Shown here piece by piece: positions 8,446 to 57,969 of a DNA stretch of 58,698 bases. Both the position numbers and the translations under genes were made by a program. Every line of letters starts with the position of its first letter. Within the stretch, counting starts at the first letter, position 1. The stretch spans positions 1 to 58,698 of the forward strand of contig JAMDAY010000004.1 in NCBI GenBank assembly GCA_023484515.1, written 5' to 3'. This DNA comes from Patescibacteria group bacterium (GTDB lineage: Bacteria > Patescibacteriota > Doudnabacteria > UBA920). Below the pieces are notes generated by a model. That model was not told where the DNA came from and did no database searches. It saw nothing but the letters and a program-made list of their open reading frames with translations.

Positions 8446-8523
8446 ATGGGGCAACTACATCTTAAGACAAGCCTTCGCAATGAGCACAAAGGCTATCATA
8501 TGCATCCAGGTGAAGTAATATGG

Positions 8524-37879: not shown

Positions 37880-39235
37880 TTAAAACAATCCCATCTGTTT
37901 CGGTTTTTTAAAAATCCGGCTTTGTTCCTCTTGGTTGTAAATATGGATTTTCCCGAACACCCCGTCGTAACCGCCTTCCGCGCGGACCAACCCCTGCCGC
38001 ACGCGGATTACGGCTTGGGCAATCTCCGGCGTGGAGATTCGGGTAATTTGATCTTCATTGAAATCCAGCAGTATTACGAATTCATTGGGAATTGGAAATT
38101 GGGAATTGGGAATTTTTGACGACACCATCTCCTCATACATTTTTACCACCTTCTTGCTTGCCGGGCCGACGCCTAAAGTTTCGGCAATAATTTCTTCCAG
38201 AGGGATTATGCTCTTAAACGGCACGGATCGCGGCGGCACAAACCCATATTCGCGGTCTGCCAGCTGGTCCACGCGGTTTAGCACGCCAACCAGCAATTTT
38301 TTTCCGCACACCGGACATATTCCCCCCAATTTCGCGGTTTGCGCAGGCAGGCAGGAAAATTTGCAGTCGCGGTGCCCGTCCAAATGATACTTGCCTTCTT
38401 CCGGATAAAATTCAATGGTATACAAAAACTCTTTGGGGTCCTTATTCTTTATAATGCGGATTATTTCCTGGTAAGACAACTTGCCGGGATCAATTTCAAA
38501 CGCGTTGGCTTCGCGCCCCAGCTTCCTTAACGAATGGGCGTCGGAATTGGAAATGAGTGAATATTTGTCCAGGCCGGAAACCTGCCAGTTCATTTTTGGG
38601 TCGCTGGACAAGCCGGTTTCCAAGGCAAAGATATATTTTGCTTGCCCGCCAAACGCTTCTTCCACGGAATCAAATCCGGATAACGACCCGAACACCCCAA
38701 AATGCGGCGTCCAGGCATGGGCGGGAATGACCGCAATACTCGGATCAGCCTCCAGCGCGATTTTTACTATTTCATCGCAATGGATGCCGGTAATGGGCCG
38801 GCCGTCGGCTTTTAAGTTCGCGCCGCGTTTTTCCAAGCCCGCATTGAACCGGTCAACTGCTTCAAAGTTCGGAGCAAGGACCAGCAAATGAATGCGCCTG
38901 ACTTTGTCGCCTTGCTTGTATATGGAGGAAACTTCCACGGTAAGCATAAACAAGGCCTGCGGCTTACCTGTAGAGGAGGGTTTCACTCCTCCTTTCCCGC
39001 CGGACGGGTCTAGGCCCGTCCCGACGCCGGCCGATCGTAACTGATATAATCCCGGTCTTACTTCTTCCAGCGTTGATTTTAATTCCGCAAGCCACTTGGG
39101 ATGGGTAAAATCCCCGGTGCCGATTATATTTATCCCTTTCTTGTCCGCCCAAACCCCGATATTTTGCGGGTTTAAGTCTTGGGAGCAAGCCCTGCTGTAT
39201 TTGGAATGGATGTGCAAATCTGCAATAATGCGCAT
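37880..39235 (-). CDS. PHP-domain protein (endonuclease Q / UvrD-associated family) with two repeat-derived insertions
   Basis: ADLHIHSKYSRA, GTGDFTHP, PAHAWTP, ETGLSSDP, SNSDAHS, CPVCG. Confidence 0.9.
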   Translation of the reverse strand: MRIIADLHIHSKYSRACSQDLNPQNIGVWADKKGINIIGTGDFTHPKWLAELKSTLEEVRPGLYQLRSAGVGTGLDPSGGKGGVKPSSTGKPQALFMLTVEVSSIYKQGDKVRRIHLLVLAPNFEAVDRFNAGLEKRGANLKADGRPITGIHCDEIVKIALEADPSIAVIPAHAWTPHFGVFGSLSGFDSVEEAFGGQAKYIFALETGLSSDPKMNWQVSGLDKYSLISNSDAHSLRKLGREANAFEIDPGKLSYQEIIRIIKNKDPKEFLYTIEFYPEEGKYHLDGHRDCKFSCLPAQTAKLGGICPVCGKKLLVGVLNRVDQLADREYGFVPPRSVPFKSIIPLEEIIAETLGVGPASKKVVKMYEEMVSSKIPNSQFPIPNEFVILLDFNEDQITRISTPEIAQAVIRVRQGLVRAEGGYDGVFGKIHIYNQEEQSRIFKKPKQMGLF

Positions 39236-39361
39236 AAATAAAATTGAAAGATTGAAAATTAAATAATTGAAAATTTCAAGGAATCCTTAATCTTTCAACA
39301 ATTCAATTTTCAATTTTTAATTATTAAATTACTACTATTATACCATCTTTTGCTGTATAAT

Positions 39362-40150
39362 ATGAATATGAATACCAATGACCAATATTTAAAAACTGCT
39401 TTGCAGGCGGCTAAACAGGCAGGCGAAATATTTAAAGCCAGTTTCGGCAGGCCGCGGCAGGTAAAAAACAAAAACAACAATCCGCGGGACCTGGTTACGG
39501 AAGCGGACTTGAAAATAGAAAAACTTATCCGAAGCATTGTTGGCAGGCGTTTTCCCGCCCATAAAATTATCGGCGAAGAATTTGGCGCGGCTGAAATTAA
39601 CAAAAGCGACCTGGTGTGGATTGTGGATCCCATAGACGGCACGACTAACTTTATCCAAGGCATCCCTTTTTGCTGCATCTCCATAGCCCTGTGGGACAGC
39701 AAGGGACCTTTGGCGGGAGTAGTTTACAACCCGATCACTAATACTTTATACCACGCAGCCAAAGGCAAGGGCGCTTATTGCAACAACAAACTAATCCATG
39801 TTTCAAAAACCAATTCCGTAAAAGACAGTTATAGCGCTGTCAGTTGGGGCCGAACCTGGCAGATGGGAAGAAAAATTATGCCGTTTTTTATCAGGAACAT
39901 GAGAAAAGTGAGAACTTTCGGCAGCGTCGCTTTGGAAACCTGCTATGTCGCCCAGGGAAGTTTTGACAGTTTTATTCAGGGCAGGCTGTCTATTTGGGAT
40001 GTTGCGGCAGCGGCTTTAATACTGGCCGAAGCCGGCGGCCGGGCAACGGACTGGCAAGGCAAGGCCGTGTCCCGGCAGGTGAAAAATTTGGTAGCCAGCA
40101 ACGGCAGGCTGCATAAAGAATTGCTAAAGCTGGTGAACAATCTCTATTGA
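39362..40150 (+). CDS. suhB: Inositol monophosphatase family protein
   Basis: DLVTEAD, GEE, VDPIDGTTNF, WDVAAA. Confidence 0.93.
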   Translation: MNMNTNDQYLKTALQAAKQAGEIFKASFGRPRQVKNKNNNPRDLVTEADLKIEKLIRSIVGRRFPAHKIIGEEFGAAEINKSDLVWIVDPIDGTTNFIQGIPFCCISIALWDSKGPLAGVVYNPITNTLYHAAKGKGAYCNNKLIHVSKTNSVKDSYSAVSWGRTWQMGRKIMPFFIRNMRKVRTFGSVALETCYVAQGSFDSFIQGRLSIWDVAAAALILAEAGGRATDWQGKAVSRQVKNLVASNGRLHKELLKLVNNLY

Positions 40151-40227
40151 AGCCCGTATATTATCTTGAATAATTTTTGTTATTAGTAAGCCGAAATTTG
40201 TTCAACTGATTTTGCGGAGATGGGTAA
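40144..40227 (+). mobile_element. 84-bp palindromic MITE, copy 1
   Basis: About 5 substitutions versus 45692-45775 over the first 78 nt; right end degenerate. Confidence 0.75.
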
Positions 40228-40232
40228 GGACA

Positions 40233-40601
40233 GTAGGGACAGGTCTAGACCTGTTGTCCTTGCAAGAAAAGGCGCAAAACCTCCTTAAGCTTGCAGTTGC
40301 CCAATTCATTGGGCTGCGCATTCGGCAACAGACCCATAAAGAATGTAGGGGCAAGCTTTAGCTGCCCGCAGTTCGGGCGCCCAAAGGGCAGCCCCTACAA
40401 AGGATAATTTATCTTGCCACAGTGCCGCCTGGTACCTGGCTTGCAATGGGCATGCAAAATGCGGTGTCATTGCGAGCGAGTGCATCCGAGGCTGACGAAG
40501 CAAACTATCCCGCGTGTCATCGCGAGTGCATCCGAAGCGATCTGTTCCAGGCAAAGGAAAAGATTGCTTCGGCAAGACAAAGCCCTTGCCTCGCAATGAC
40601 A
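40233..40601. repeat. Island of GTAG- and GTC-type REP-like palindromes
   Basis: gtagggacaggtctagacctgt (40233-40254); doublet 40344-40399; gtcattgcgag-type units 40465-40601. Confidence 0.85.
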
Positions 40602-40611
40602 CCGGGCATGG

Positions 40612-40767
40612 GAAAAAGGTTTTAGAAAACCCCTGATAAACCTTATACCTGCCCCTATGGGAACGCCTCAACCGCGGTTGAGGCGTTCAGGAGGCAGATG
40701 TTTTTACTCCCTATTTTACTTGTCAATGGCAAGGAAGGCACCTTTTAGGGGATAAACAGGCTTTAGA
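40612..40767 (-). repeat. Structured dispersed element, copy D (5'-truncated)
   Basis: Reverse complement aligns to copies A and C; perfect 28-bp palindrome 40661-40688. Confidence 0.8.
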
Positions 40768-41020
40768 GGTAGAGACGACACAGAGAAGCGCCGTGCCATC
40801 CTGAACTTTTGCTGATATCAAAAAATATAGGATCTTTTCTATGAGTGAAAAAATTGTACAATTGTACAATTTTTTCACCGGTTACAAACCCGCTGTATAT
40901 TCTAAATATTCTAAATTTATTTTTCACGACTTTAAAAAATGAATTGTCGGTACGTATTAAAATACATATTTATCAAGGCCAAAAAAAGTTGAAGCGGGCA
41001 TCAGGAACCTGACGCCCGCT

Positions 41021-41725
41021 TTATGCGTGGTCTGCCGATTCTCCTTCTCCGGGAAGGCCGGCCTGGCGGCGCCGTTCAATTTCGCCGGCCAGGCAGTCTT
41101 CCACTTCCACGCGCTTTTTCGCGTGGAAAGGATAGGGAAATTTGGTAAGAGCGGCAACGGTGTGGTCAAAAGCCCCCCACCAGCCTTCTTCCAGGACCAG
41201 GTGCGGAAACCTGTTGTTTGCCGCGCCGGCGCGGAAATGGGATTTGACCCGAATTGCCTTTTGCTCACCGTTGACGAGGATTGTGATGGTGGTTCCGCTG
41301 GAAGCTGACCGGACGTCTTGCCCCGGCGGAACCTCAACAAGAAAAATGCCATCAAACATAGGTCACGCCGCGACAGAACCGGCCGCGCAAACAACCAACT
41401 CCCGCTCCATCTCCAGATGAAGCTCGGAGCTGAAATTGACGCAACACTGTACCGTCACTACCGCTCGGCGCGAGAGCCAGTCCACCGGGCCCCATGCGCG
41501 ATCACCTTCCGCGTCTTCCAGAACGTATACCGGATGAAGATCGGCCCCGTTTTTACGCCTTGACTGCGTAATCTCCCCTACAATTGTGAAACCGAAGTTT
41601 TCTCCCCCGTTTCGAGCCAAGCCCTGGTCCCCAACATGGGGGATACTGCCTGATTGAAACAACATCACTACATCTTGAAGATCGCCCATCGGCTTATTCT
41701 CCAGGATTTTCTTCAGCATTATCAT
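41021..41725 (-). pseudogene. Hypothetical gene split by one in-frame TGA, or two small co-frame genes
   Basis: The ORF ending 41363 (TGA) is followed by CCT ATG in the same frame; AGGAGG RBS upstream of 41725. Confidence 0.45.
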
Positions 41726-41920
41726 TCTCCCTCCTACCACTTTTGAAAAACAATCAGCGGCAAGGCGCGGCGTTGGACCTTGAGTGGTGCCAGCGCCATG
41801 CCTTGCCGCTGAATTCATACTTCGTAATTTTTATTTCGGTCTCGCTGCAAGTGGCGGGGCTTAAGGACCGGACAAGCCGGGCTTAAGCTCCCATCATTTG
41901 CCGCGAGGCCGCGGTTATTA

Positions 41921-42763
41921 TTATCTGCTTTTCCAGTCTTGGACCGCATTTTCATAAATTTGGGGAGTGGAAACGTCATACCATAAACCGTCAAAAGTAT
42001 AGCCGCCCAGTTTGTTCTCCTCGGCCAGGCGCGGGAGCACCTCGCTCTCCAGCTTGGTCATATCGGAAGAAATATATTTAAAAAGGGACGGTTCGGCCAC
42101 GTAAATACCCGCATTGACCAGATGGGAGTGGGTCCTGGGGTTCTTAGGCTTTTCCTCAAACTCCACAATCTTGCTGCCCACTAGCCTGGCCACGCCCCAC
42201 ATGCTTACCCTTTCCACGGAAGTCAGGGCCATGGTACAGACCAAATTCTGCTGGGAGCGGTGGAATTCCAGCAAGTCGGAAAAATCTATGTCCGCCAGCA
42301 CGTCGCCGTAAATAAGCAAAAAAGTGCCGTTTGAAAATTCCCCCTGCGCCTGGCGCACGGTCTGGGCCGTGCCGCGCCTTACCCCCGACTGGTCAAGGTA
42401 GGAAATTTTCAGCCCCCAGCGGGATCCGTTACGGAAGTAATCCCTTACTTTTTGCCCGCCCGCGCCCACCGAAATGACTACGTCCACAATGCCGTATGTT
42501 TTCAGCTTTTCCAGCGTATGCTCCAAGAGCGGTTTGGCATTTATAGTTAAAAGGCCTTTGGGCATTTCCGTGGGCGTGTAGGAAAAATTAACGCCTTTGC
42601 CGCCGGCTAAAACCAGGGCCTTTACCGGTTTTTGCGCCAAGGCCTGGGACAAAATGTTTTCCACGGCATGGGAACGGTTGCGTATGGTATGACCGTCAAT
42701 AGCTTGGTCCAGTTGCTTCAGCAGCTCGCTTTTTAAAGTGATGGTGATTCTTTGTCTCGTCAT
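41921..42763 (-). CDS. Ribbon-helix-helix domain fused to a nucleotidyltransferase-fold domain
   Basis: N-terminal RQRITITLKSELLKQLD...NRSHAVE; LVLAGG, YGDVLAD, VNAGIY. Confidence 0.85.
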   Translation of the reverse strand: MTRQRITITLKSELLKQLDQAIDGHTIRNRSHAVENILSQALAQKPVKALVLAGGKGVNFSYTPTEMPKGLLTINAKPLLEHTLEKLKTYGIVDVVISVGAGGQKVRDYFRNGSRWGLKISYLDQSGVRRGTAQTVRQAQGEFSNGTFLLIYGDVLADIDFSDLLEFHRSQQNLVCTMALTSVERVSMWGVARLVGSKIVEFEEKPKNPRTHSHLVNAGIYVAEPSLFKYISSDMTKLESEVLPRLAEENKLGGYTFDGLWYDVSTPQIYENAVQDWKSR

Positions 42764-42877
42764 AGTTTTTATCCTAATTTAATGTTATAAAGTAATAGAC
42801 GTTCAGTCATATTATATCATACAATATCATACATTTAATTATTATCTCCTGCCAACCAAAACCGGATTTCTCACCTT

Positions 42878-42961
42878 CTATTGATCTCCGCAAAATCAGT
42901 TGAACAAATTTGGTCTTACTGATAACAAAAATTATTCAAGATAATATGCGGGCCTTAATAA
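42878..42961 (-). mobile_element. 84-bp palindromic MITE, copy 2
   Basis: Reverse complement differs from 45692-45775 at about 4 positions. Confidence 0.75.
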
Positions 42962-43016
42962 GACCAACCCGCAAGCCGAACCCTCTATGGGCGCGCGGCT
43001 TGCGGGTTAATTGCTG

Positions 43017-43325
43017 TCATGCCGCAAGGGAAAGAAGAAGCGGGGCTTCGGCGGCTACCTGCTGGAAAGGCCGCCGGAAGTTTTCCACGAAGATTTGGAT
43101 TTTCTCTTCGCTTATTCCCCCTTCCCACAGGAAGATGGGCCAAGATCCGTCTATATCTTCCAGGCTGGCGCCGTGGCACATGAGCAGGAGCTCAAGGGCG
43201 TGGTCAAAGTGCGTGTGGCACAAACCGTTAAACAGCTTCCGCCCGAAGTTCTGGAGAGATTCCCCCGGTTCCTTGAAAAAGCCGAATTCCGCGGCGCGAG
43301 AACAAATGTGTTCGCCTGCCTTCAT
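43017..43325 (-). CDS. Hypothetical protein
   Basis: GGAGGG RBS 6 nt upstream of ATG; preferred over the overlapping plus-strand ORF. Confidence 0.55.
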   Translation of the reverse strand: MKAGEHICSRAAEFGFFKEPGESLQNFGRKLFNGLCHTHFDHALELLLMCHGASLEDIDGSWPIFLWEGGISEEKIQIFVENFRRPFQQVAAEAPLLLSLAA

Positions 43326-43535
43326 TGCAACCCTCCGTTTACTAACTCATTAGACGTTTTCGCGGGAATGATACAGTAAAAAGGTATGATACGGTAATAT
43401 CTTTGCTGCGGCGGCGACTTTTCAGTATAAATGGGAATCTTTAAGCCCGCCGGAACACGACCTCTTACAAAAAATAAGTTTTTCCGTTCGGTTCCCGTCA
43501 AGGCTAACAGCTTATAAAACGCGAGGAGGAATACG

Positions 43536-44339
43536 ATGCGGAAAAAAGTGTCGGCCGTGGTTTTGGCCGGCGGATACGGCTACTTCGGAGTTGGCAAAAT
43601 TCGGATGAGCAAAGTGGTCGCTAAAATTGGCGGCAAGCCTATGGTGCGCCACGTCATGGAGACCCTCCGCTCCACGGAAATTTTTGCCAGGTACCATGTT
43701 GTTGCGAACAAGAATTACGCCAGGCAAATAGAAAACGCCCTGCAAGGACTGCCCGATACGTCCTACCAAATCCAGGAGTGCAGGATAGGCAGCGCCGGGG
43801 CGGTTGAACTGGCCCTTAAAGCGGCAAGGCCGGAAGAAGAAAACGTCCTGATAACTTATGCCGATATGCCCCTGTGGGAGCCGGCAACTTACGCCGCCGT
43901 GGCCGAACGCCACCTTCGGGAAAACCCCGACCTGACGCTGGTATCAATACCCCTTAAGCCGGGAACCAGGCCGGAACGCTACGGCCGGTTCCTTTACGGG
44001 CCGGATGGGGAACTGCTGGGAACGATTGACGACCCCGCCTGCGTGCCGGAAGGAAAATACACGCTGGCCAACGAAGTCAACCCTTCCCTTTACGCGGGGA
44101 AAACGGAATGGCTCAAGCGGGCCATCTCCGAAATCCCCCTTTACGACAAAAAGGACGGTTTCCCGCCTGAAAGGCTAATGCAGAGCGTAATCTACCTGGC
44201 TTACCGCGACAAGCGCAAAGTCGTAAAAATCCGGGTAGAAGACTGCGAACAGGCCTACGGCGTCAATACCAAGGAAGAGTTGCGCGAGGTAAAAAAAATT
44301 TTCGCCCTGCGGCGTTCTCCGGCGGTTTTGGCGGCTTAA
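43536..44339 (+). CDS. Divergent GlmU N-domain-like nucleotidyltransferase
   Basis: VLAGG, KPMVRHV, YADMPL, YGR, EVNPSLY, GVNTKEEL; AGGAGG RBS. Confidence 0.8.
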   Translation: MRKKVSAVVLAGGYGYFGVGKIRMSKVVAKIGGKPMVRHVMETLRSTEIFARYHVVANKNYARQIENALQGLPDTSYQIQECRIGSAGAVELALKAARPEEENVLITYADMPLWEPATYAAVAERHLRENPDLTLVSIPLKPGTRPERYGRFLYGPDGELLGTIDDPACVPEGKYTLANEVNPSLYAGKTEWLKRAISEIPLYDKKDGFPPERLMQSVIYLAYRDKRKVVKIRVEDCEQAYGVNTKEELREVKKIFALRRSPAVLAA

Positions 44340-44471
44340 CCGGCATTTTGCAAAAACAGGCAGCCGGACATACTTCCCCGAAGGAAGCGTCCGGCAGCCT
44401 GTCATTTTGTATACCGGTCGGCATAATAATTTCCGATCGCAATTGGCAGTATAATTGCTGCCTAAAGCTTA

Positions 44472-45218: not shown

Positions 45219-45285
45219 AAGTAGTAATCGCAAATATACAAATCTAAACAAATGCTTGCTATTATAAAAATTTATTTACTTGCAA

Positions 45286-45651: not shown

Positions 45652-45691
45652 AAATTGATAAATGGATTAATTTTTCTTGCCGCCAAAAACG

Positions 45692-45775
45692 CTATTGAGG
45701 CCCGCATATTATCTTGAATAATTTTTGTTATCAGTAAGCCCAAATTTATTCAACTGATTTTGCGGAGATCAATAG
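45692..45775 (+). mobile_element. 84-bp palindromic MITE, copy 3 (intact ends)
   Basis: CTATTGA...TCAATAG termini; inner arms ccgca/tgcgg and ttgaataa/ttattcaa. Confidence 0.8.
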
Positions 45776-46764: not shown

Positions 46765-46842
46765 AATAGTTAGCGATTAGTGTTTAGGAAAAAGAAAAAA
46801 ATTGCCAAACAATTAATTCTTTGTAAATTTTATTATTTTTCC

Positions 46843-48144
46843 CTATTCTCTTTTCTCTGTAATACCCATTTCTTTTCCGACTTTTCCAAACGCCTCCGCA
46901 GCCTTGTCCATCTGTTCCTTTGTGTGAGCGGCGCTAATCTGCACGCGGATGCGGGCTTTGCCTTTGGGCACTACCGGATAGGTAAAGCCGCGCACGTATA
47001 TGCCGTGTGTAAATAATTTTGCTGCCATTTCCGTGGCCAATTTTTCCTCGCCCAGCATTACCGGCGTAATGGGATGCCTGCCGTCGCCGCCCAAAGCAAA
47101 TCCCAGTTTTTCCATTGCCGAACGGAAGTAGGAGGTATTTTCCGCCAACTGTTTCCGCAGGCTGATGAATTTTGAGTCAAAATTTTGCAAGACATGCAAA
47201 GCGGCGGAAGCTATCATGGGCGGCAGGGAGTTGGAAAACAGCGTAGTGCGGCTGCGCTGGTGCAGGACCTGGATTATCTCCTTGCGCCCGGCGGTAAATC
47301 CGCCGCCGGCCCCGCCCAGGGCTTTGCCGAAAGTTGACGTAAGAATATCCACACGGTCCATAAGCCCTTCCACCGCTCCCCGTCCATGCTCGCCTAACAC
47401 GCCTGACCCGTGGCTGTCGTCCACCATGACCATTGCCCCGTATTTTTCCGCCAGATCGCAAATTTGGGAAATTTTGGCCGTAATGCCGTCCATGCTAAAC
47501 ACGCCGTCCGTGGCGATTAAAAGACGAGATTCCCTTGTAGGGGAGGGTTTAGACCCTCTCTCGTTTACGGACGGGTCCAGACCCGTCCCTACGCGGTCAC
47601 GAAATTCCTTCAACTTCGCTTCCAAGTCCGCCATATCCGAGTTCTTATATCTGAACCGTTCCGCTTTGCACAACCTTACCCCATCTATGATAGATGCGTG
47701 ATTTAATTCATCACTGAAAATCGCGTCGCCTTCCTTCAATATCGTCTCAAACAATCCGGTATTGGCATCAAAGCAGGAAGTATATGTAATGGCATCTTCG
47801 GTGCCGAAAAATCTGCTAATTTCTTTCTCCAGGTCCTTATGTATCATAGACGTGCCAACAATAAACCGGACGGACGCTTCACCAAACCCATATTTTTTTA
47901 CGCCTTCAATCGCGGCTTGCGCCAGCTCATCCGACGATGCCAGTCCCAGGTAATTATTTGCGCAAAAATTCAGGAGCTTGGTTCCCTTATTTTTGTCACT
48001 TTTGTCATTTTCGTCGTTTTTGTCATTCTTGATCAATATCTCTGCTCCCTGCTTCCCCTCCAGCACCCCCACCTCTTTCCACATGCCGCTTTCGCGGATT
48101 TCCTTTAACTCGTCTTCAAATTGGCGTTTGTAAGCCTGGTACAT
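46843..48144 (-). CDS. kbl: Glycine C-acetyltransferase (2-amino-3-ketobutyrate CoA ligase) with repeat-derived insertions
   Basis: NFCANNYLGL, ASVRFIVG, DELNHASIIDG, DDSHG, STFGKALGG, ARIRVQISA. Confidence 0.93.
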   Translation of the reverse strand: MYQAYKRQFEDELKEIRESGMWKEVGVLEGKQGAEILIKNDKNDENDKSDKNKGTKLLNFCANNYLGLASSDELAQAAIEGVKKYGFGEASVRFIVGTSMIHKDLEKEISRFFGTEDAITYTSCFDANTGLFETILKEGDAIFSDELNHASIIDGVRLCKAERFRYKNSDMADLEAKLKEFRDRVGTGLDPSVNERGSKPSPTRESRLLIATDGVFSMDGITAKISQICDLAEKYGAMVMVDDSHGSGVLGEHGRGAVEGLMDRVDILTSTFGKALGGAGGGFTAGRKEIIQVLHQRSRTTLFSNSLPPMIASAALHVLQNFDSKFISLRKQLAENTSYFRSAMEKLGFALGGDGRHPITPVMLGEEKLATEMAAKLFTHGIYVRGFTYPVVPKGKARIRVQISAAHTKEQMDKAAEAFGKVGKEMGITEKRE

Positions 48145-48161
48145 AGGCAATAAATTTAATG

Positions 48162-49547
48162 TTAAAATTGGATTAAAAATTTCGGATGCGCGGACATCAT
48201 TTCCTCAAACCCCTCTTTGGTATATTTTGCAATCGGCAAAATGGCGCCTTGGCCGCGGTCTAAGATTATGTCAAATAATTTTTCCTGCACGCCATTGGGC
48301 AGGTCTTCCATCAGTTTTTTGGTAATTTCCCAGGTTTCCCAAATCTGGCGGCCGGCTACGCAATGCATGGTGACGCCTTTCATCACCAGGCGATTGTAAT
48401 CTTCAAAAACAAAATCACCGTTCTTTAGTCCAAACAAAATTACGTCCCCGCCGCGGCGGACAGAGGCAATGGCATTGTTGACCGAATCGTTAAATCCCGC
48501 CATTTCAAACGCCACGTCCGCGCCCAGGCCGTTGGTGATTTTTAGAATTTCGTCTACGACTGCCTGGTTGTGGGCGTAGGGTTTCTGCGTCATCGCGAGT
48601 GCATCCGAAGCGATCTTCTTGTCGGGTAAGATTGCTTCGTCCTCCTTCGCTGAAGCTTCGGAGGATCTTTGATCGGATGCGCTCCTCGCAATGACACCGG
48701 AAGATTGCTTTAGTGTGATCACGTAATCTATCCCCAGCTTCTTTGCCATATCAATCGCCACCGGGTTCGGTTCTATGCCAATTATGGTTGAAGCGCCCAA
48801 GCCCTTGGCAATTAAAGTTAAAAACATGCCAATCGGCCCCAGGCCAAAAATCGCCACGGTTTTGCCCTTTAAATCTACTTTGCTTGCCGCGTGCACGGCA
48901 TTGCCGAACGGCTCCTGCATAGCCGCCACTTCGGGGCGGATTCTGCCTGTGTCAGTCTTCCAAGCCACCTGTGCCGGCACCTTGGCAAACTCCGCAAACC
49001 CGCCGTCTACGCTAATGCCTAAAATCTTTTCGTTGGTGCAAACGTTTTTTTGCCCATACAGGCATTGATAACATTTATTGCAAACTACGTGCGACTCGCA
49101 GGCTACAAAGTCACCGGGCTTTAAATTTTTTACGTTTGACCCCACTTTCACTATCTCGCCAAAAAACTCGTGGCCAATGATGCGATATGTCTTCTTGCTG
49201 TCATTGCGAGGAGCCAGGGCTTTATCTGGCAACGACCTGTCCGACGTAGCTTTAGCGTAGTCGGAAGCAGTCTTTTCTTGGGTTAAGATTGCTTCGCCCT
49301 CGGATGCACTCGGGCTCGCAATGACACCATTTTTTGATTCCGCATCAATGCTATTCAAAATCGCATCCTTAAAAGCCTGCCGATGCCAAATTCCCTTGTC
49401 CGTGCCGCACACGCCGGCATAGGCTACCTTGATAATAATTTTATCTTCATCGCCCTCTTCCAAAACCGGCTCGGGGACGTCTGCCAACTCAAACCCGCGC
49501 GAGGTTTCCCAGCCATATTTGCTTTTGTCAAAAATAAGCGCTTTCAT
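48162..49547 (-). CDS. tdh: L-threonine 3-dehydrogenase (Zn-ADH family) with two palindrome-derived insertions
   Basis: GVCGTD, GHEFFG, ESHVVCNKCYQC, EPFGNAVH, GLGPIG; adjacent to kbl. Confidence 0.88.
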   Translation of the reverse strand: MKALIFDKSKYGWETSRGFELADVPEPVLEEGDEDKIIIKVAYAGVCGTDKGIWHRQAFKDAILNSIDAESKNGVIASPSASEGEAILTQEKTASDYAKATSDRSLPDKALAPRNDSKKTYRIIGHEFFGEIVKVGSNVKNLKPGDFVACESHVVCNKCYQCLYGQKNVCTNEKILGISVDGGFAEFAKVPAQVAWKTDTGRIRPEVAAMQEPFGNAVHAASKVDLKGKTVAIFGLGPIGMFLTLIAKGLGASTIIGIEPNPVAIDMAKKLGIDYVITLKQSSGVIARSASDQRSSEASAKEDEAILPDKKIASDALAMTQKPYAHNQAVVDEILKITNGLGADVAFEMAGFNDSVNNAIASVRRGGDVILFGLKNGDFVFEDYNRLVMKGVTMHCVAGRQIWETWEITKKLMEDLPNGVQEKLFDIILDRGQGAILPIAKYTKEGFEEMMSAHPKFLIQF

Positions 49548-49559
49548 ATTTTAAGATGG

Positions 49560-51416
49560 TTATTTGTCAAGCACCGTTAAATCGCCCACCGGCTGCCCCA
49601 GTTCCTGCGCCTTGAGCACGCGCCGCATAATTTTGCCGCTGCGGGTTTTGGGCAGGGAAGGGACAAATTCAATTTCGTCCGGCACGGCAATGGCCGCAAT
49701 TTCATGGCGCATGTGGAATTTGATTTTTTTGATTAAATCTTCAGAAGCCAACGCCGTGTCTTTCAACACTAAAAACGCTTTCATGCGTTCGCCTTTTATT
49801 TCGTCGGGCTTCGGGATAACCGCAGCTTCGGAAACCGCCGGATGCGCCACCAAAGCGTTCTCCACTTCCGCCGTGCCTATCCTGTGCCCGGAAATGTTTA
49901 TCACATCGTCCGATCTCCCTAAAATTTGGATATAGCCGTCCGCGTCTTTAATGGCAAAATCCCCGGTAAAATACACGCCTTTAATTTCATTCCAGTATTG
50001 GTTAAACCTTCCCTGGTTGTTCAGGCAGGTGCGCAAGGCCGAAGGCCAGGGTTTTTTTATTACTAAGAATCCTTTTTCGCCCGCAGGAACATTTTGACCC
50101 TCCTGATTGACCACATCGGCCTCAATGCCGAAGAATGGCAATCCGGCAATGCCCGGTTTTTGCGGCAATCCCGGCAAAGTCACTATCATATGCCCGCCGG
50201 TTTCCGTCTGCCACCAGGTATCAACAATAGCGCATTGGCCGTTCCCGATATATTTGTTATACCATTGCCAGACTTCCGGATTAATAGGTTCGCCGACCGT
50301 GCCTAAGACTTTAAGCGATGAAAGATTGTGCTTTTGGCAGTATTCTTCCCCATGCTTGCGCAGCATGCGGATAGCCGTGGGCGAAGTGTAAAAAACATTT
50401 ACCTTTTCTTCTTCTATAATTTTATACCAATGGTCGGGCGCGGGATAATCCGGCACGCCTTCCACGATAACAGATGTTATTCCATTGGACAGTGGCCCGT
50501 AAACTATATAGCTATGGCCGGTTATCCAGCCCGGGTCAGCCGTGCACCAAAAAATACTGTCTTGATGCAAGTTAAAAACTTTTTTTGTGGTGTAGTGCGT
50601 ATAAACGCTGTAGCCGCCCACGGTATGTACAATACCTTTAGGCTTGCCGGTTGAGCCGGAAGTATAAAGCACGAATAATGGATCTTCGCTGTCCATAACT
50701 TCAGGATTACAGGTATCGGACTGGTTTTCAAGCAATCGGTTATAATCAATTCTCCTTGTAGTGGCATGCCGAGGCATACCGCCTTTGGACGGCGCGCCAT
50801 GGCGCGCCGCTACAGCGTCTCGATCCAATACAATAACCTTCTCCATGCACTCCAATTTCTTTACCGCATCTTCCACTGTTGGCAGCAATTCTTTTTTCGC
50901 GCCTCGCCGCAATGTCCAGGTTGCAGTAACAACAACCTTCGCCTGCAAATCTTCTATTCTTTCGCGCAAGGCTTTGTCGGAAAAACCGGCAAAAACCACG
51001 CTATGCACCGCGCCAATCCGCGTGCAGCCGAGCATGGCCACAATCTGCTCTATTACCAATGGCATATACAGCACCACCCTGTCGCCTTTTTTCACGCCCA
51101 AAGATTTTAAGCCATTGGCAAATTTATTCACCTGCAATAACAGTTCGGCATAAGTGATGGCAATGCGCCCGTAATTTTCGTTGGTATAAATGAACGCAAT
51201 TTTATCACCCAGTCCATTCTTTATATGCCTGTCCAAACAGTTATGCGTAATATTGAGCTTTCCTCCAACAAACCACTGGTAATTGGGAAAATTCCACTCA
51301 AACACCTTGTCCCATTTTTTTCCCCATTCTATTTCTTCTGATGCGACATCAGCCCAAAACTTCTCCGGGTCTTGGATGGATTGGTTATATATTTTTTGGA
51401 ATTCTTGCTGTTGCAT
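49560..51416 (-). CDS. acs: Acetyl-CoA synthetase (AMP-forming)
   Basis: YTSGSTGKPKG, WITGHSY, DTWWQTETGG, GRSDDV, PKTRSGKIMRR. Confidence 0.95.
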   Translation of the reverse strand: MQQQEFQKIYNQSIQDPEKFWADVASEEIEWGKKWDKVFEWNFPNYQWFVGGKLNITHNCLDRHIKNGLGDKIAFIYTNENYGRIAITYAELLLQVNKFANGLKSLGVKKGDRVVLYMPLVIEQIVAMLGCTRIGAVHSVVFAGFSDKALRERIEDLQAKVVVTATWTLRRGAKKELLPTVEDAVKKLECMEKVIVLDRDAVAARHGAPSKGGMPRHATTRRIDYNRLLENQSDTCNPEVMDSEDPLFVLYTSGSTGKPKGIVHTVGGYSVYTHYTTKKVFNLHQDSIFWCTADPGWITGHSYIVYGPLSNGITSVIVEGVPDYPAPDHWYKIIEEEKVNVFYTSPTAIRMLRKHGEEYCQKHNLSSLKVLGTVGEPINPEVWQWYNKYIGNGQCAIVDTWWQTETGGHMIVTLPGLPQKPGIAGLPFFGIEADVVNQEGQNVPAGEKGFLVIKKPWPSALRTCLNNQGRFNQYWNEIKGVYFTGDFAIKDADGYIQILGRSDDVINISGHRIGTAEVENALVAHPAVSEAAVIPKPDEIKGERMKAFLVLKDTALASEDLIKKIKFHMRHEIAAIAVPDEIEFVPSLPKTRSGKIMRRVLKAQELGQPVGDLTVLDK

Positions 51417-51693
51417 TTACTTAAAATATAATTTTAATTTATCGACAGCTTTTTTAACATCTTTCTTATTTTTTGAAGTTTTCATATTTTCCCTTGCATA
51501 TTCCATAAATATCTTTGATAGTTTCCATAAATTCAACCTCCACAGCCCATAAATGGGCTAACTACAACTTTATTTGCCCAATAAATCGGCGCACTGCATT
51601 CAGCGTAATATCAGCGTAGCGATCAGCGACCTATTAGCGGGCAGTATCCGTGATCCGTGTTTATCCGTAATCTATCCGTGTTAATCTTTTCAG

Positions 51694-53538
51694 TTATTCC
51701 ACGGTCACGCTCTTAGCCAAATTCCGCGGCTTATCCACGTCGCAGCCGCGGGCCACGGCCATGTAGTAGGCAAATAATTGCAAAGGAATAACGGACAAAA
51801 TCGGCGTGAGCATCTCCAAAGTCTTTGGAATATAAATTACGTCGTCTACCAGCTTTTTTATTTCCTCGTTGCCTTCGGTCGCCACCGCAATTACGCGCGC
51901 GCCGCGCGCCTTAATTTCTTTGATATGATTAATGTTTTTTTCGTAAACGCTGTCTGTCGGAATTATTATCACGACCGGAAAATTTTCGTCCAGCATGGCA
52001 ATGGGCCCGTGCTTTAATTCCGCGCCGTTGTAGCCTTCGGCGTGCACGTAAGCTATCTCTTTCAGCTTTAACGCACCTTCCAAGGCCACGGGAAAATTAT
52101 ATTTGCGGCCAAGAAAGAAAAAGTGTTTGGCAGATTTGTATTTTTCCGCGATTGGTTTTATTGTTTCCGCAATGTCCAAAATGCAGTCTATCTTTTCCGG
52201 CAAATCTTCCAGCTCGTTAATTATCCTTTGGCCCGTGACCAGGGACATGTCTTTCCTGCGGCCGAAATACACGGACAACAAGGACAAAATTACCACCTGC
52301 GACACAAACGCCTTGGTAGAGGCCACGGCAATTTCCGGGCCAATGTGGTTGTAAACTCCGGCATCGTTTTCGCGGGCAACGGTTGAACCCGTGACATTTA
52401 TTATCCCCAAGGTCAAAATACCTTTTCGTTTCGCTTCTTTTAATGCCATTATCGTGTCTGCGGTCTCACCGGACTGGGATATGGCTAAAACGGCTGTTGA
52501 TGCGGTCAATAGCGGCTTTCGGTAAGCGAACTCCGAGGCATATTCCACTTCCACGGGCAAGCCGGCATATTCTTCCAGCATATATTCCCCGACTAAACCG
52601 GCATTGCGCGCCGTGCCCATTCCGACAATCACCAAACGATCAAGATCGTTCAAGCGGCCGTTAGCCCGCTCCAGTCCGCCAAGCTTAACCGTTCCTTCTT
52701 TTTCAACCAGCCTTCCGCGGATACTGTTTACCACAGCCTGCGGCTGTTCCATAATCTCCTTAAGCATAAAATGCTCGTATCCGCCTTTTTCCGCCGCTTC
52801 CATTGTCCAGTCTATGTTTTGGGCTTGATGGTTCTTTTCACGGTTTTCCAGATCAGTGATAGTGTATTTTTCCCGGTTCAGCGTAACCATTTCTCCGTCA
52901 TCCAAATATACCACTTTGGATGTCAAAGGCAAAATTGCCGTAAGGTCGGATGCAATTACCAGCTCGTCCTGGCCAATACCAAGCACCAGCGGCGAACCGA
53001 ACCGCGCGGCGACTATATGGTCGGGATCGTCCGATGATACAACCGCGATGCCATACGCGCCCGTAATTTTCTTCAGTGCTTCCCTGACAGCCTGCGCCAA
53101 ACTTGTTACTTGTTCCTTGTCACTTGTCACTTGTTTCTCAATCAAATGCGCCAGCACCTCCGTGTCTGTATCCGAAGCGAACTTATGCCCTTCTTGAATA
53201 AGCTGATCTTTCAGCGCCTGGTAATTTTCTATTATCCCGTTATGCACCACGAAAATTTTGCCTTGGCAGTCGCACTGCGGATGCGCGTTTCTTTCGCTCG
53301 GCTCGCCGTGCGTGGCCCAACGGGTATGGGCTATTCCCAAGCTGCCGGATAAATCTTGGCCGGCAATTTTACCCTTTAAAGCCGCAACCCGGCCTTTTTC
53401 TTTAAAAAATTTGGCCCGATTTTTATCAATCACAACTAAACCAGCGCTATCGTACCCGCGGTACTCCATGCGTGTAAGCCCTTCCATCAAAATAGAAGCC
53501 GCCTGCCTTTTGCCAATGTAACCGATAATGCCACACAT
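51694..53538 (-). CDS. glmS: Glutamine-fructose-6-phosphate transaminase
   Basis: MCGIIG, YRGYDSAG, HTRWATHG, SQSGETADT, KPRNLAKSVTVE. Confidence 0.98.
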   Translation of the reverse strand: MCGIIGYIGKRQAASILMEGLTRMEYRGYDSAGLVVIDKNRAKFFKEKGRVAALKGKIAGQDLSGSLGIAHTRWATHGEPSERNAHPQCDCQGKIFVVHNGIIENYQALKDQLIQEGHKFASDTDTEVLAHLIEKQVTSDKEQVTSLAQAVREALKKITGAYGIAVVSSDDPDHIVAARFGSPLVLGIGQDELVIASDLTAILPLTSKVVYLDDGEMVTLNREKYTITDLENREKNHQAQNIDWTMEAAEKGGYEHFMLKEIMEQPQAVVNSIRGRLVEKEGTVKLGGLERANGRLNDLDRLVIVGMGTARNAGLVGEYMLEEYAGLPVEVEYASEFAYRKPLLTASTAVLAISQSGETADTIMALKEAKRKGILTLGIINVTGSTVARENDAGVYNHIGPEIAVASTKAFVSQVVILSLLSVYFGRRKDMSLVTGQRIINELEDLPEKIDCILDIAETIKPIAEKYKSAKHFFFLGRKYNFPVALEGALKLKEIAYVHAEGYNGAELKHGPIAMLDENFPVVIIIPTDSVYEKNINHIKEIKARGARVIAVATEGNEEIKKLVDDVIYIPKTLEMLTPILSVIPLQLFAYYMAVARGCDVDKPRNLAKSVTVE

Positions 53539-53638
53539 AAATACAATTTAAACCAAAATTGAAAAATTTAAAATTGAAAATTAAAAGATTGTGGAGGCCG
53601 AAACGAAAATATCTCGCTCCGGCCTCATTGCATGATTT

Positions 53639-53842
53639 TTATCTTCCCGCTTTATCCTCCAGCGGACTTTCGAAGTTACGGCATACCTTCTGCCCCCGGA
53701 TACCGTGAAGACCCTCTTTCACATAGAAAGGGACTTGATCATCGACTTTCTTTGTGTTGGGATGCTGCCCCAAGGTTTCACCGTCGTCCCAGTCCAGAGT
53801 GCGCTCTGTGTTCGGTGTTGGTTTTTCGTCTTTATTAAACAC
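53639..53842 (-). CDS. Small hypothetical protein
   Basis: AAGGAGG RBS before GTG. Confidence 0.5.
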   Translation of the reverse strand: MFNKDEKPTPNTERTLDWDDGETLGQHPNTKKVDDQVPFYVKEGLHGIRGQKVCRNFESPLEDKAGR

Positions 53843-53915
53843 GGAATCCTCCTTTTCAACAAGACCAACGATCTGTAAAGATAGAAAGGCCGTAAGTGCT
53901 CACGGCCTTTCTCAG

Positions 53916-54722
53916 CTAGTGGTTATCGTTCCGCCGCTGCCGCAGGATCTGTCTGAGCCGTTCCAGCTGAGCGGCGTTGTTTACTCCCCGGGCTTCGTTA
54001 TGGTCTGCCACGGGTATCTCAATAATCTTAGCCCCTTGGCCACGGGCAATCTTGAGCAGCTTGGGAAGATGCCTTTCGGCTGTCAGGCCGTCTTTGCTGA
54101 CCGGCTTAATATCCCGGAAATTGTTTTCAAACCACCGCCGGTTGAACACGTATAGCGATGGATTAACCGTCTTCACTCCCGCCAGCTCCCTGCCTTCCAT
54201 CTCGTCCGGTTCAAACACGGACAATATTCCACCTTGCCCGTCCCGCGCAATTCTTCCGTAATCGGCTATCGGGTCGCCCGGCGGAGGCGTAACAGTCACC
54301 AGGCTTATGGCCGCCTTTCCATCCCTGAGATGCGCCTCGATGAGCCGTGTCATCGTTTCTGAGGTCCAGGCGCCCATATCTCCCAACGTCACCAGGAGAT
54401 GATCCTCGCCATTCAGGCACTTCAATCCTCTGGCCACCGCGTCTGCAGCGCCAAACCGGTCCGGCTGAACCGCGAACTTTACGTCTATATGGCCTGCGGA
54501 ACGAAGGGCCTGGCGAATTTGGTCGCCAAACTGGTTCTTGCTGCGGTCACCAATCACCACCACAAGAGAACCAATTACGCCGGTCTGCTTTACCGTTCTG
54601 ACAATGCGGTTAATCATCAATTCGCCGTTGCCGACATCGGCCACCACTTTTGTAACCGACCTGTCCGGACAAAAGGAACCGAATCCTGCCGCGGGAATGA
54701 TACAACCAACGTGTTGATTCAC
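53916..54722 (-). CDS. Divergent GlmU N-domain-like nucleotidyltransferase
   Basis: IPAAG, QPDRFGAADAV, LGDM, YGRIAR, VNPSLY, GVNN. Confidence 0.8.
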   Translation of the reverse strand: MNQHVGCIIPAAGFGSFCPDRSVTKVVADVGNGELMINRIVRTVKQTGVIGSLVVVIGDRSKNQFGDQIRQALRSAGHIDVKFAVQPDRFGAADAVARGLKCLNGEDHLLVTLGDMGAWTSETMTRLIEAHLRDGKAAISLVTVTPPPGDPIADYGRIARDGQGGILSVFEPDEMEGRELAGVKTVNPSLYVFNRRWFENNFRDIKPVSKDGLTAERHLPKLLKIARGQGAKIIEIPVADHNEARGVNNAAQLERLRQILRQRRNDNH

Positions 54723-54789
54723 TCTGATACCCTCGGTTCAAATTTTCTACACAACCCCAAACAAAAGGATTGCTGAACTTGCCTGCAAC

Positions 54790-55536
54790 TTAAAGATGGT
54801 TCCAGGTAAATTCAAAAATCATTTTTTGGGTTTCGTAAATTTCGCGGTTCTGGATAACCACGCCGACCGGATTTTCGTTATTATTAATGCTAATATGCGC
54901 CACTTTGCCGTTATAAATAATTTCATAAGTGGCTTTTGCGTCCTTGTGCTCCGCGCTCATCCACTTCCTTTCATCAAGTCCCACCAAATGCCCGCCTTCG
55001 CCCAAGGCAATGGTTTTTACTTTAATGCCTTTCTTAATCCGTTTTTCGCTAAAATCCGGCATGGCCAAATAAACGTTTTGCCTTACGCTGGCCGAAGAAA
55101 ATACGCGGTAAACTTTATGCTCGCAGCCTTCCATGCTTTCCAACACGTCTTCCAAAATGCTTTTAATCCCCTTGATGCCTTCGTAAAGCTTAACCGCCGG
55201 CTTGCCTCCCTGGCGTTCAAACAGAATTTTTAGTTCCGGCAGGCTTTCCTGAATTTGCTGCCTGACTTCCTTTAATTCCTGCTGCTTGTCCTCCAAGGCC
55301 GAAATTAGTTTTTCCGGCGGCTCGGCCGCAAAGTGCTGGTGGGTTTTGGTGTCATAAAAGCTTGCCAGGCCTTGTTTCTGCAAACCCTTTAAAATGTCAT
55401 AAGTAGTGCCGCGGTTAACCTTGGCCAAACCGGCAATTGTCCTTACCGGCGAGGGGCCAAGTTCTATCAGAGCCAAATAAACCGCAATCTCCTTTTCCGA
55501 CAGCCCGAATTTTTTTAAAATGGGTTCTATCTGCAT
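54790..55536 (-). CDS. TrmB-family transcriptional regulator
   Basis: FGLSEKEIAVYLALIELG, RGTTYDIL, LYEGIKGI; typical CPR architecture. Confidence 0.9.
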   Translation of the reverse strand: MQIEPILKKFGLSEKEIAVYLALIELGPSPVRTIAGLAKVNRGTTYDILKGLQKQGLASFYDTKTHQHFAAEPPEKLISALEDKQQELKEVRQQIQESLPELKILFERQGGKPAVKLYEGIKGIKSILEDVLESMEGCEHKVYRVFSSASVRQNVYLAMPDFSEKRIKKGIKVKTIALGEGGHLVGLDERKWMSAEHKDAKATYEIIYNGKVAHISINNNENPVGVVIQNREIYETQKMIFEFTWNHL

Positions 55537-55668
55537 ATTATTGATGATACTCTTGGCTGTTATATTTGTCAATATTTTTTCTGCAATTTTATCAGATAAA
55601 TAAAAATAGCCTTATTTAAGGCTATTTATTACATTATATATGTGGAAATTTACCTGCATTTACACAGG

Positions 55669-56244
55669 TTATCCCCTTTTCCGGTAAATGTATACTTCGT
55701 GTTTTTTGGGCATGCGGCAGACTTCCGCGGGGATTAAATTGGGGAAGGGAAAGTCGCGGATAACGGCAATGCTGCCTGGCTTGCAATCCTTCAGGAACTT
55801 TTCTTCTACCCGGCCCATTAAAGGTGGATAAAGGTAGCCGTAAATAACGGTCGCTTCGGTCCAGGGATGCTTAAAGAAGTTCTGGTTTTTGAATGTTATC
55901 CCGAATTTTTTATCTGCTGTAGGGGAGGGTCTAAACCCTCCCCTACAGGCCAATTTGATTCTTGCTAATAAATGCGTCCACCAGGTCAGTTCATACCCCA
56001 CGCATGCCGCCCCTGACAGCTTATTTACCAAAAAACACACCTTGCCGTTGCCGCTGCCAAGGTCGTAAAAAATGTCCCGCGATGAAATGCCAAGCTTTTT
56101 GACTATAAATTCTATGTCGCTGGCATGCGTCGGGACAAACGGCACGCGCGTCAACAGAAAGCCCAGAAAAGCGCTGGTAATAACGAACAAAACAACCAGG
56201 GAAAATATTAAAAACAGCGACAATACGATTGTATAAATTACCAT
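55669..56244 (-). CDS. Membrane-anchored class I SAM-dependent methyltransferase
   Basis: VPFVPT, YDLGSGNG, YGYLYP. Confidence 0.88.
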   Translation of the reverse strand: MVIYTIVLSLFLIFSLVVLFVITSAFLGFLLTRVPFVPTHASDIEFIVKKLGISSRDIFYDLGSGNGKVCFLVNKLSGAACVGYELTWWTHLLARIKLACRGGFRPSPTADKKFGITFKNQNFFKHPWTEATVIYGYLYPPLMGRVEEKFLKDCKPGSIAVIRDFPFPNLIPAEVCRMPKKHEVYIYRKRG

Positions 56245-56386: not shown

Positions 56387-56394
56387 TCATAAAA

Positions 56395-56898: not shown

Positions 56899-57969
<1,071 letters not shown>

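Follow-up and report, generated by a model that had tools for sequence, protein, structure and literature searches.

Short palindromic repeats probably inserted in frame into permissive loops of housekeeping genes in a Doudnabacteria-like bacterium

How do short, GC-rich palindromes come to lie within the coding sequences of core enzymes, and are they tolerated there, removed, or put to use? The question is raised by a stretch of 58,698 nt (contig JAMDAY010000004.1, positions 1 to 58,698, assembly GCA_023484515.1), which is referred to below in its whole length as the window. In it, five minus-strand genes carry hairpin-forming segments that resemble repetitive extragenic palindromes (REPs), and the open reading frames (ORFs) of all five are intact. 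These genes encode an endonuclease Q family protein (EndoQ), 2-amino-3-ketobutyrate CoA ligase (kbl), an L-threonine 3-dehydrogenase-like enzyme (tdh), acetyl-CoA synthetase (acs) and a small methyltransferase-like protein (MTase). An earlier note, made from the sequence alone, had taken the segments for REP-like palindromes of several active families, inserted in frame and tolerated in surface loops. This interpretation proved essentially right, and all of the tests proposed with it that could be carried out supported it. The most probable answer, to which a probability of roughly 80% is assigned, is that short REP-type palindromes of several families have inserted in frame into permissive loops of housekeeping genes and have been kept and translated. 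Judged from orthology, the source genome is Candidatus Doudnabacteria-like and belongs to an uncultured, ultra-small bacterium of the Patescibacteria or Candidate Phyla Radiation (CPR); the nearest relatives of the five genes are found in Candidatus Doudnabacteria and other Patescibacteria metagenome-assembled genomes (MAGs), with about 60-80% protein identity.

All six palindromes lie where they had been reported, and the ORF translations reproduce the peptides quoted for them exactly, with the five frames open (Table 1). The insert placed in a 'PHP gene' is real, but the gene is better named as a member of the endonuclease Q family, its orthologs being annotated as endonuclease Q / TIGR00375, PF27218. 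Among the units described as GTAG...CTAC, those of kbl, acs and MTase have these ends, whereas the EndoQ unit closes on CGAC. The MTase unit reads GTAGGGGAGGGT-CTAA-ACCCTCCCCTAC, with GTAG..CTAC at 55919-55946; its stem is 13 bp as had been claimed, or 14 bp with the next pair. In acs, GTAG..CTAC spans 50758-50813, and one further base pair per side gives the limits in the table. Folding z-scores, computed against dinucleotide shuffles, are -5.4 and -4.1 for tdh hot spots 2 and 1, -5.2 for MTase, -3.8 for kbl and -3.6 for acs; the EndoQ unit, which forms two separate hairpins, reaches only -1.2. Moreover, counting perfect, GC-rich stems of 11 bp or more whose loop does not exceed 135 nt gives 20 for the window, compared with 1.16 +/- 0.92 in dinucleotide shuffles. 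The bare palindromes of 56, 56 and 107 nt are not multiples of three, and the frame is kept by the insert together with a few flanking bases. In each in-gene copy the frame is preserved, no stop is introduced, and 10-47 residues are added to the predicted protein.

Table 1. Insert-bearing genes, in-gene inserts and intergenic repeat copies in the window
Feature	Position	Strand	Encoded peptide, basis or remark
EndoQ (endonuclease Q family)	37880..39235	-	intact ORF, 451 aa; uninserted orthologs 421 aa
kbl, 2-amino-3-ketobutyrate CoA ligase, 435 aa	46843..48150	-	Pfam; PDB 3tqx, E=8e-138
tdh, L-threonine 3-dehydrogenase-like zinc alcohol dehydrogenase, 461 aa	48162..49547	-	Pfam, PDB alignment, orthologs
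acs, acetyl-CoA synthetase, 618 aa	49560..51416	-	Pfam, PDB alignment, orthologs; uninserted orthologs 606-608 aa
MTase, small membrane-anchored S-adenosylmethionine (SAM)-methyltransferase-like, 209 aa	55669..56298	-	weak DOT1 Pfam match; orthologs
EndoQ hot spot 1, GTAG-type REP doublet	38970..39025	-	VGTGLDPSGGKGGVKPSST; starts GTAG, degenerate far end CGAC
EndoQ hot spot 2, (AATTCCC)n heptamer run, non-palindromic repeat-derived insert	38083..38114	-	IPNSQFPIPN
kbl, GTAG..CTAC REP doublet, REPIN-like, two inverted units	47537..47592	-	VGTGLDPSVNERGSKPSPT
tdh hot spot 2, family-B (CGTC/TGTC-tagged) modular palindrome	48589..48695	-	VIARSASDQRSSEASAKEDEAILPDKKIASDALAMT; ends GTCATCGCGAG..CTCGCAATGAC
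tdh hot spot 1, family-B palindrome with extra nested hairpin modules	49199..49326	-	VIASPSASEGEAILTQEKTASDYAKATSDRSLPDKALAPRND; ends TGTCATTGCGAG..CTCGCAATGACA
acs, GTAG..CTAC palindrome, third sequence type	50757..50814	-	VAARHGAPSKGGMPRHAT
MTase, single GTAG REP unit	55918..55947	-	CRGGFRPSPT; 12-bp GTAG..CTAC stem, 4-nt loop
Intergenic cluster, both families	40233..40604	.	GTAG unit 40233-40259, GTAG doublet 40345-40398, composite family-B element 40462-40604
Intergenic cluster of family-B units and modules	8199..8484	.	generates spurious ORF
Intergenic GTAG doublet	11194..11248	.	approximately reverse complement of 40345-40398 copy (by eye)

The inserts belong to repeat families that also exist as free copies between genes, and two such families, A and B, predominate. 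Family A, a GTAG..CTAC hairpin of the REP/REPIN (REP doublet forming hairpins) type whose peptide reads VG.G.KPSPT, is present as a singlet in MTase and as inverted doublets in kbl and EndoQ; 23 nt are identical between the kbl and MTase inserts, and 27 nt match at 89% between those of EndoQ and kbl (BLAST within the window). The acs palindrome has the GTAG..CTAC ends but is distinct in sequence from these units, and it folds as one long imperfect hairpin, unlike the inverted doublets of kbl and EndoQ. Family B, found at both tdh sites, is a TGTC/CGTC-tagged modular palindrome encoding VIA[RS]...LAMT, with the tag CGTCAT at 48588 and 40515 and TGTCATT at 49199, 40465 and 8214. Its termini, (G)GTGTCATTGCGAG ... 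CTCGCAATGACAC(C), pair across 70-143 nt and enclose a central GAAGCAATC..GATTGCTTC hairpin with optional extra hairpin modules, and modular alignment shows this plan to be common to in-gene and intergenic copies. Near-identical segments of 23-43 nt link the two kinds of copy in BLAST comparisons within the window. The 28-nt identity asserted for a tdh insert holds (48589-48616 equals intergenic 40516-40543), and modules of tdh site 1 match intergenic 8399-8437 (90%) and 8287-8325 (91%) over 39-43 nt. The intergenic cluster holding both families has fold z-scores of -4.0 and -5.7 and contains segments identical to in-gene copies. An Rfam search returned no family for any of the repeats.

The sites at which these repeats lie are recurrent presence/absence loops. 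At the two tdh sites, about 53 and about 45 residues have no counterpart in solved TDH structures, nor has the 19-residue kbl segment any in solved KBLs; in each case the alignment shows a clean gap. Among 37 tdh and 35 kbl orthologs drawn from genome loci, distant members have no insert, and in closer ones the two tdh loops and the single kbl loop, at exactly the positions seen in the window, hold inserts that differ in length and sequence; the shortest tdh orthologs are approximately 373-380 aa, as against 461 aa in the window. Because the loops are missing in distant orthologs and, for tdh and kbl, in solved structures, they are regarded as insertions rather than ancestral loops. In a set of 119 tdh orthologs, at least 8 extra residues are present at site 1 in 69 and at site 2 in 65, and of 121 EndoQ sequences, whose base length is 421 aa, 57 have hot spot 1 filled and 73 hot spot 2, the peptides being unrelated and running to dozens. 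For acs, inserts at this loop are confined to the closest orthologs, each of which has a different one, including VIARS..LAMT and VGAGLQP..PSPT types; a peptide resembling the acs insert of the window also fills an EndoQ hot spot in one ortholog (P0014). The MTase insert is missing in 20 of 21 orthologs, the nearest of which has another insert, of 33 aa, in its place. In addition, 27 tdh ortholog inserts of at least 10 aa have a GC content of 0.57 compared with 0.46 for the whole gene, and a median fold z of -4.6 (24/27 below -2) compared with -0.27 (1/27) for control coding segments of the same genes. Each insert thus occupies a hot-spot loop that in related genomes may be empty or may hold any of many repeat families. 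The comparison of orthologs proposed in the earlier note therefore supports insertion in tdh, kbl, EndoQ, acs and MTase alike, and the finding that it feared, relatives carrying the same loops, did not appear, as relatives have different repeat peptides or none at all.

It could be argued that such loops are ordinary lineage-specific variable loops that are palindromic by chance, or that they are assembly chimeras, but this explanation is scarcely credible. Variable loops do occur at these positions in the wider families, and residues 200-222 of acs vary even among solved structures, making the insert less clear-cut there. Ordinary loops would not be expected to share up to 28 identical nucleotides, termini and modules with intergenic repeats, to stand out from flanking coding DNA in GC content and folding, or to belong to repeat families that recur in many phyla. 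As to chimeras, the window was compared with contigs from two other sequencing runs, one of which (L201) is identical to it over the MTase, acs, tdh and kbl inserts and the other (L202) over the tdh and kbl inserts, with 7 mismatches in total, all at a contig end inside the 23S rRNA gene. Since contigs of independent runs match the window base for base across the inserts, an assembly artefact, the second outcome that would have overturned the original interpretation, is excluded.

The reading frame is where selection on the inserts becomes visible. All 13 in-gene copies of family B in Doudnabacteria loci, as well as tdh site 2 of the window, measure 2 mod 3 from GTC to GAC, their peptide being VIA[RS]...LAMT; tdh site 1 of the window, of 126 nt, reads VIAS...PRND. 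Intergenic copies have lengths of 0, 1 or 2 mod 3 with no preference. Of the two alternative frames that a length of 2 mod 3 leaves, one invariably runs into a terminal stop; the other, a Cys/Arg-rich HCE...PRND frame, stays open in roughly half the copies but goes unused. Read on the reverse strand, frame 0 gives a peptide of similar VIA...LAM type, and family B is therefore tolerable in both orientations. Clearly independent in-gene sites of this family number about 7, and 6 of them start with VIA. The proposed comparison of in-frame and out-of-frame copies thus reveals frame selection in in-gene family-B copies and none in intergenic ones. For GTAG..CTAC hairpins, 40 related loci yielded 4 clean in-gene copies, too few for frame statistics. 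Further in-gene copies of the VIA type lie in UvrA (L125), GuaA (L119) and acs orthologs, and one locus, L175, uses RHCE...LAMT. The records of the UvrA and GuaA copies are labelled uncultured Gammaproteobacteria, a label shared by the Doudnabacteria-like loci L026, L029 and L031, and it may be unreliable for these MAGs.

Strict frame discipline also bears on the idea that the segments are intervening sequences, intron-like or intein-like, that are removed from the mRNA or the protein. Insertions are known in CPR rRNA genes, the 23S rRNA gene of the window itself has extra segments relative to the Rfam model, and the inserts form strong RNA hairpins. With removal, however, there would be no reason for keeping the frame and avoiding stops across hundreds of orthologs, and therefore the segments do not appear to be spliced out. 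Furthermore, segments of 10-47 residues without intein motifs are far too small for inteins, and no Rfam intron family was matched. Removal is accordingly held to be highly improbable.

Predicted structure agrees with tolerated loops. In the AlphaFold2 model of tdh (mean pLDDT 83; pLDDT, predicted local distance difference test), residues 76-107 and 287-310 fall below 50 and form coil, the core being confident. In that of EndoQ (mean pLDDT 89), the hot-spot 1 insert, at approximately residues 70-94, is coil at about 50 that joins two strands, and hot spot 2 is coil between helices. The inserts are thus probably exposed loops that the fold tolerates. The location in surface loops claimed by the earlier note is borne out to the extent that models of tdh and EndoQ place low-confidence coil between well-modelled core elements, these being predictions.

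Such loops might instead be kept as useful, either as mRNA hairpins tuning pausing, decay or co-translational folding, or as peptides altering the surface, interactions or regulation of the enzyme, which would amount to a loop-diversification system. The frequent filling of the same loops, seen in about half of the orthologs, and the strict preference for one family-B peptide frame are in keeping with this, as is the report that REPs act as RNA elements downstream of genes (PMC3733652). A conserved function is hard to reconcile with loop sequences that are unrelated between close relatives, with loops that are often empty and are predicted to be disordered, and with the presence of the same elements in unrelated enzymes, and the frame preference is explained by avoidance of the Cys/Arg-rich alternative peptide. 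Usefulness is therefore considered very doubtful, and tolerated insertion remains the preferred account.

Turnover of the repeats appears to be recent. Two EndoQ orthologs, P0061 and P0071, differ outside their inserts by only a few substitutions (about 99% identity), but the REP at hot spot 1 is not the same in the two (DGAHQDSRWAPS vs NVGEGLKPSP), and a 30-nt hairpin (PSRRRLAEAG) at a third EndoQ site is found in P0071 only. P0003 and P0005, 91% identical, also have different REPs at the same site, and other EndoQ pairs at 90-96% identity differ in their inserts. It is because orthologs of about 99% identity differ in the repeat filling a loop that the turnover is taken as recent. In two other genomes (L006 and L016), both tdh sites hold the same genome-specific family-B variant. 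The families had been called active, and this is upheld as an interpretation of near-identical copies and of swap and gain or loss in nearly identical EndoQ genes of a related lineage, not as observed transposition.

Replacement at exactly the same site suggests a refinement, namely that hot spots arise mainly by targeted replacement and not by selection on random insertions alone: the resident hairpin would attract further elements, which insert into it, or would be converted by recombination with REP copies or with alleles of related strains, and an opened loop would be refilled many times. The two EndoQ pairs with different REPs at one site speak for it, and so do the extra hairpin modules nested in the family-B element at tdh site 1 and the same nesting in intergenic clusters. 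Recombination between diverged strains could, however, swap old loop alleles into near-identical backbones without any targeting; the P0061/P0071 swap is located at protein rather than nucleotide resolution, and selection for permissive loops alone predicts recurrence at a few tolerant sites. The refinement is held tentatively, at somewhat under even odds.

A sequence of events that would fit tolerated insertion can be outlined. The repeats may be selfish, non-autonomous elements propagating as DNA hairpins, most likely through a trans-acting HUH/tyrosine enzyme (REP-associated tyrosine transposase, RAYT, or IS200-like) or another enzyme, with template switching or gene conversion between copies as alternatives. 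In a small, gene-dense genome many insertions would hit genes. Selection would then retain only those with a total length that is a multiple of three, an open used frame, a flexible, hydrophilic peptide of small residues and a permissive loop, and recurrent hot spots would follow because selection filters insertions in this way. A resident hairpin probably doubles as a landing pad or recombination partner, a role which would account for nested modules and rapid replacement. The inserts would accordingly be translated and tolerated rather than removed.

Several points weigh against this account. A Pfam scan of 45 window ORFs found no transposase or RAYT (including Y1_Tnp), a result that says little about the whole genome; the absence of such a gene from the ORFs scanned leaves the mobilisation step unproven. 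No target-site duplication is evident by eye at in-gene or intergenic borders. The closest genome is approximately 70-80% identical to the window in protein, so that the empty sites compared are those of other species. In-gene copies at orthologous sites possibly share ancestry, so that the frame statistics are not fully independent. The surface location of the inserts comes from predicted rather than solved structures, and their presence in mRNA and protein is deduced from sequence. Finally, in the closest genome, kbl (L001 7814-9036) is frameshifted inside a repeat insert of the TRNLTREDAERN type, which may reflect either a genuine pseudogene or an indel error in what its contig name suggests is a long-read assembly.

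In-frame palindromes in housekeeping genes have a classic precedent in the Rickettsia palindromic elements (RPEs; Ogata et al. 2000, 2002, described in PMC10969869 and PMC3733652). As in those elements, palindromes lie in frame in unrelated housekeeping genes of a small-genome bacterium, the extra peptides fit the fold, and several families coexist. R. conorii RPE-6 is equated with CGTC-1 and RPE-4 with CGTC-4, so both stand in the CGTC-tagged superfamily that family B resembles; CGTC REPs have no dedicated transposase (PMC3733652). The window differs in its CPR host, in elements of 28-128 nt compared with about 150 nt for RPE-1, and in one loop hosting many families across orthologs, with turnover between genes about 99% identical. 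On the basis of insertion behaviour and of the Doudnabacteria-like host, the window elements are best described as an analogue of RPEs and not as a member of them. The earlier framing, that coding palindromes are best known from Rickettsia, is fair in view of the RPE precedent, but intragenic REPs are documented in several species, many in repair genes such as uvrA (PMC3733652), and the case is less exceptional than it implied.

The GTAG and CGTC (also TGTC) superfamilies of REPs were defined by Di Nocera et al. 2013 (PMC3733652). Family A agrees with GTAG REPs and REPINs (PMC3733652; Bertels & Rainey 2011, PMC3116915) in its terminal GTAG..CTAC, GC-rich stem of 9-13 bp and short loop, and in its occurrence as singlets and inverted doublets, in intergenic clusters and occasionally within genes. 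The MTase singlet fits the stem of 5-13 bp and loop of 2-20 nt that characterize such REPs, kbl and EndoQ have two inverted units, and the elements are multi-copy and clustered, with intergenic copies in the 58.7-kb window and mostly intergenic ones in other phyla. Family A thus fits the GTAG-REP criteria that could be checked; no RAYT was found flanking or near it within the window, and the in-gene share of copies in the window is much higher than that described for typical REP-rich genomes. Family B is like CGTC REPs in its terminal CGTC/TGTC followed by AT, its head-to-head symmetric organization and the lack of a known dedicated transposase, and it is found in Bradyrhizobium, Sphingomonas, Micavibrio and Rickettsiales, which are CGTC hosts in PMC3733652. 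It differs in that termini of 11-15 nt pair across 70-143 nt and enclose 1-3 internal hairpin modules, and in that the central GAAGCAATC hairpin, with TT after it, has some 10-13 nt in its loop, compared with the CGTC unit of an 8-9-bp stem, a 4-5-nt loop and a CCA tail. Compared by tag, geometry and host range rather than by consensus sequence, family B is CGTC-like and not a proven member.

[quoted passage not shown] The window elements are smaller GC-rich hairpins rather than derivatives of insertion sequences bounded by terminal inverted repeats, and family B, for all its inverted termini of 11-15 nt, shows no flanking duplication on inspection of the kind that defines MITEs. No description of intragenic REPs or MITEs in CPR was found in the literature searched, and the family-B sequence as a literal string returned unrelated primers only, with no named description. 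What is seen is therefore no new kind of system but the RPE/intragenic-REP phenomenon in a new host lineage. Its standout features are several families with six to eight inserts in 17 kb, reuse of one loop by many families, and turnover between near-identical genes.

The distribution of both families beyond the window was surveyed by an exact-pattern scan of one genome per species, and the hosts named are among the matches listed. Termini of family B occur in Bradyrhizobium, Sphingomonas, Micavibrio, Rickettsiales, Mucilaginibacter, Pedobacter, Chloroflexota, Planctomycetota, Microcoleus and Berkelbacteria, where nearly all copies are intergenic and open in any frame; long ORFs spanning such copies in high-GC genomes were rejected as in-gene cases, being spurious wrong-strand ORFs. 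Family A also occurs, mostly between genes, in Chloroflexota, Deltaproteobacteria, Nitrospirota, Omnitrophota, Brocadia and others, and some copies in those genomes are genuinely in-gene and read VGAGLKPAPT, for example in an MMPL-type transporter, a CheA-CheY linker, a histidine phosphatase and Tgt.

These findings add the CPR to Rickettsia and a few REP-rich genomes as hosts of protein-coding palindromes. With about half of the orthologs of several core CPR enzymes carrying junk-derived loops, protein lengths are inflated, and alignments, hidden Markov models and phylogenies may be misled; intergenic repeat clusters seed spurious ORFs, and assemblies tend to break at repeats. The inserts also constitute a natural experiment that maps the loops of TDH, KBL, ACS and EndoQ tolerating insertions of 10-60 residues and shows which reading frame of a palindrome gives a tolerable peptide. 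The spread of two families with near-identical termini across phyla raises the question of their mobilisation and transfer, CGTC-type REPs having no known transposase. A bolder proposal, which is thought unlikely to hold as it stands, would see REP-type hairpins of the CPR, shared across phyla, as a continuous generator of loop variation, in which a few permissive loops of core enzymes are repeatedly colonised, nested into and swapped on the timescale of strain divergence by a hairpin-targeting mobilisation or recombination system other than a classical RAYT. Were this true, pan-bacterial REP families would have in these episymbionts a hotspot and perhaps also a conduit.

Other insertions and duplications were noted in the same genes. 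At EndoQ hot spot 2, orthologs have related KFQISNE / SQITNQFPI peptides in the same loop as the heptamer run of the window, and the 7-nt (AATTCCC) unit inside the gene could shift the frame through slippage. The N-terminal region of kbl, at about 47983-48030, holds a second low-complexity insert, NDKNDENDKSDKNK, which is AT-rich, of a different repeat type, and present or absent among orthologs (IKNDKIDMN.. variants). Apparent tdh frameshifts in two Doudnabacteria MAGs proved not to be broken inserts, the genes being intact and preceded by a duplicated 5' fragment. There, at L007 717-1079 and L009 6001-6204, the first 29-47 tdh codons are duplicated, together with 120-220 nt of shared unrelated sequence, before the intact tdh, which looks like an insertion that regenerated the 5' end of the gene.

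Further palindromes were seen elsewhere in the window. At 2097-2165, in the last 29 codons of a DEAD-box helicase ORF (864-2183), a hairpin with a 14-bp stem (GGCAAAACCCGGTC..GACCGGGTTTTGCC) may have supplied or extended the C-terminal tail. A perfect 15-bp stem (TKGSPASQESLF) at 7044-7076, in the N-terminal linker of a putative lipoprotein encoded by a Memo-like gene (6943-7869), is possibly another in-gene palindrome. A scan for further in-gene inserts by minimum free energy in 70-nt windows was too unspecific at about 48% GC, its peaks in the first 37 kb being ordinary coding sequence. Between genes, a hairpin family at 7977-8074, 9391-9488, 10918-10997 and 21634-21714 has perfect stems of up to 20 bp (GTGAAGGCAGCCTTCCGGGA..) and loops of 45-58 nt; two of its members precede a conserved hairpin with a 13-bp stem (GAACRCCACAACA..), and no Rfam match was obtained.

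The 3' part of the 23S rRNA gene, at 56898-58698 (-), has 1801 nt for 1590 Rfam model positions and lies next to the 5S rRNA gene at 56392-56507 (-). Its extra segments comprise 131 nt where the model has 9 nt (approximately 57955-58085) and about 70 nt further 5'. The 131-nt segment was rejected as a REP palindrome, with a fold z of -1.6 and by eye no likeness to family A or B. An 83-nt direct repeat, 92% identical, lies at two gene borders (40139-40221 and 45687-45769); both independent Logan contigs stop at 45746, within it, so that a multi-copy element at which assemblies break is probable. AT-rich short repeats of the AAAATTGAAAA type, at 39239-39330, 53554-53602 and 3489-3515, are intergenic and stand beside gene boundaries, where they may be promoter or UP-like elements.

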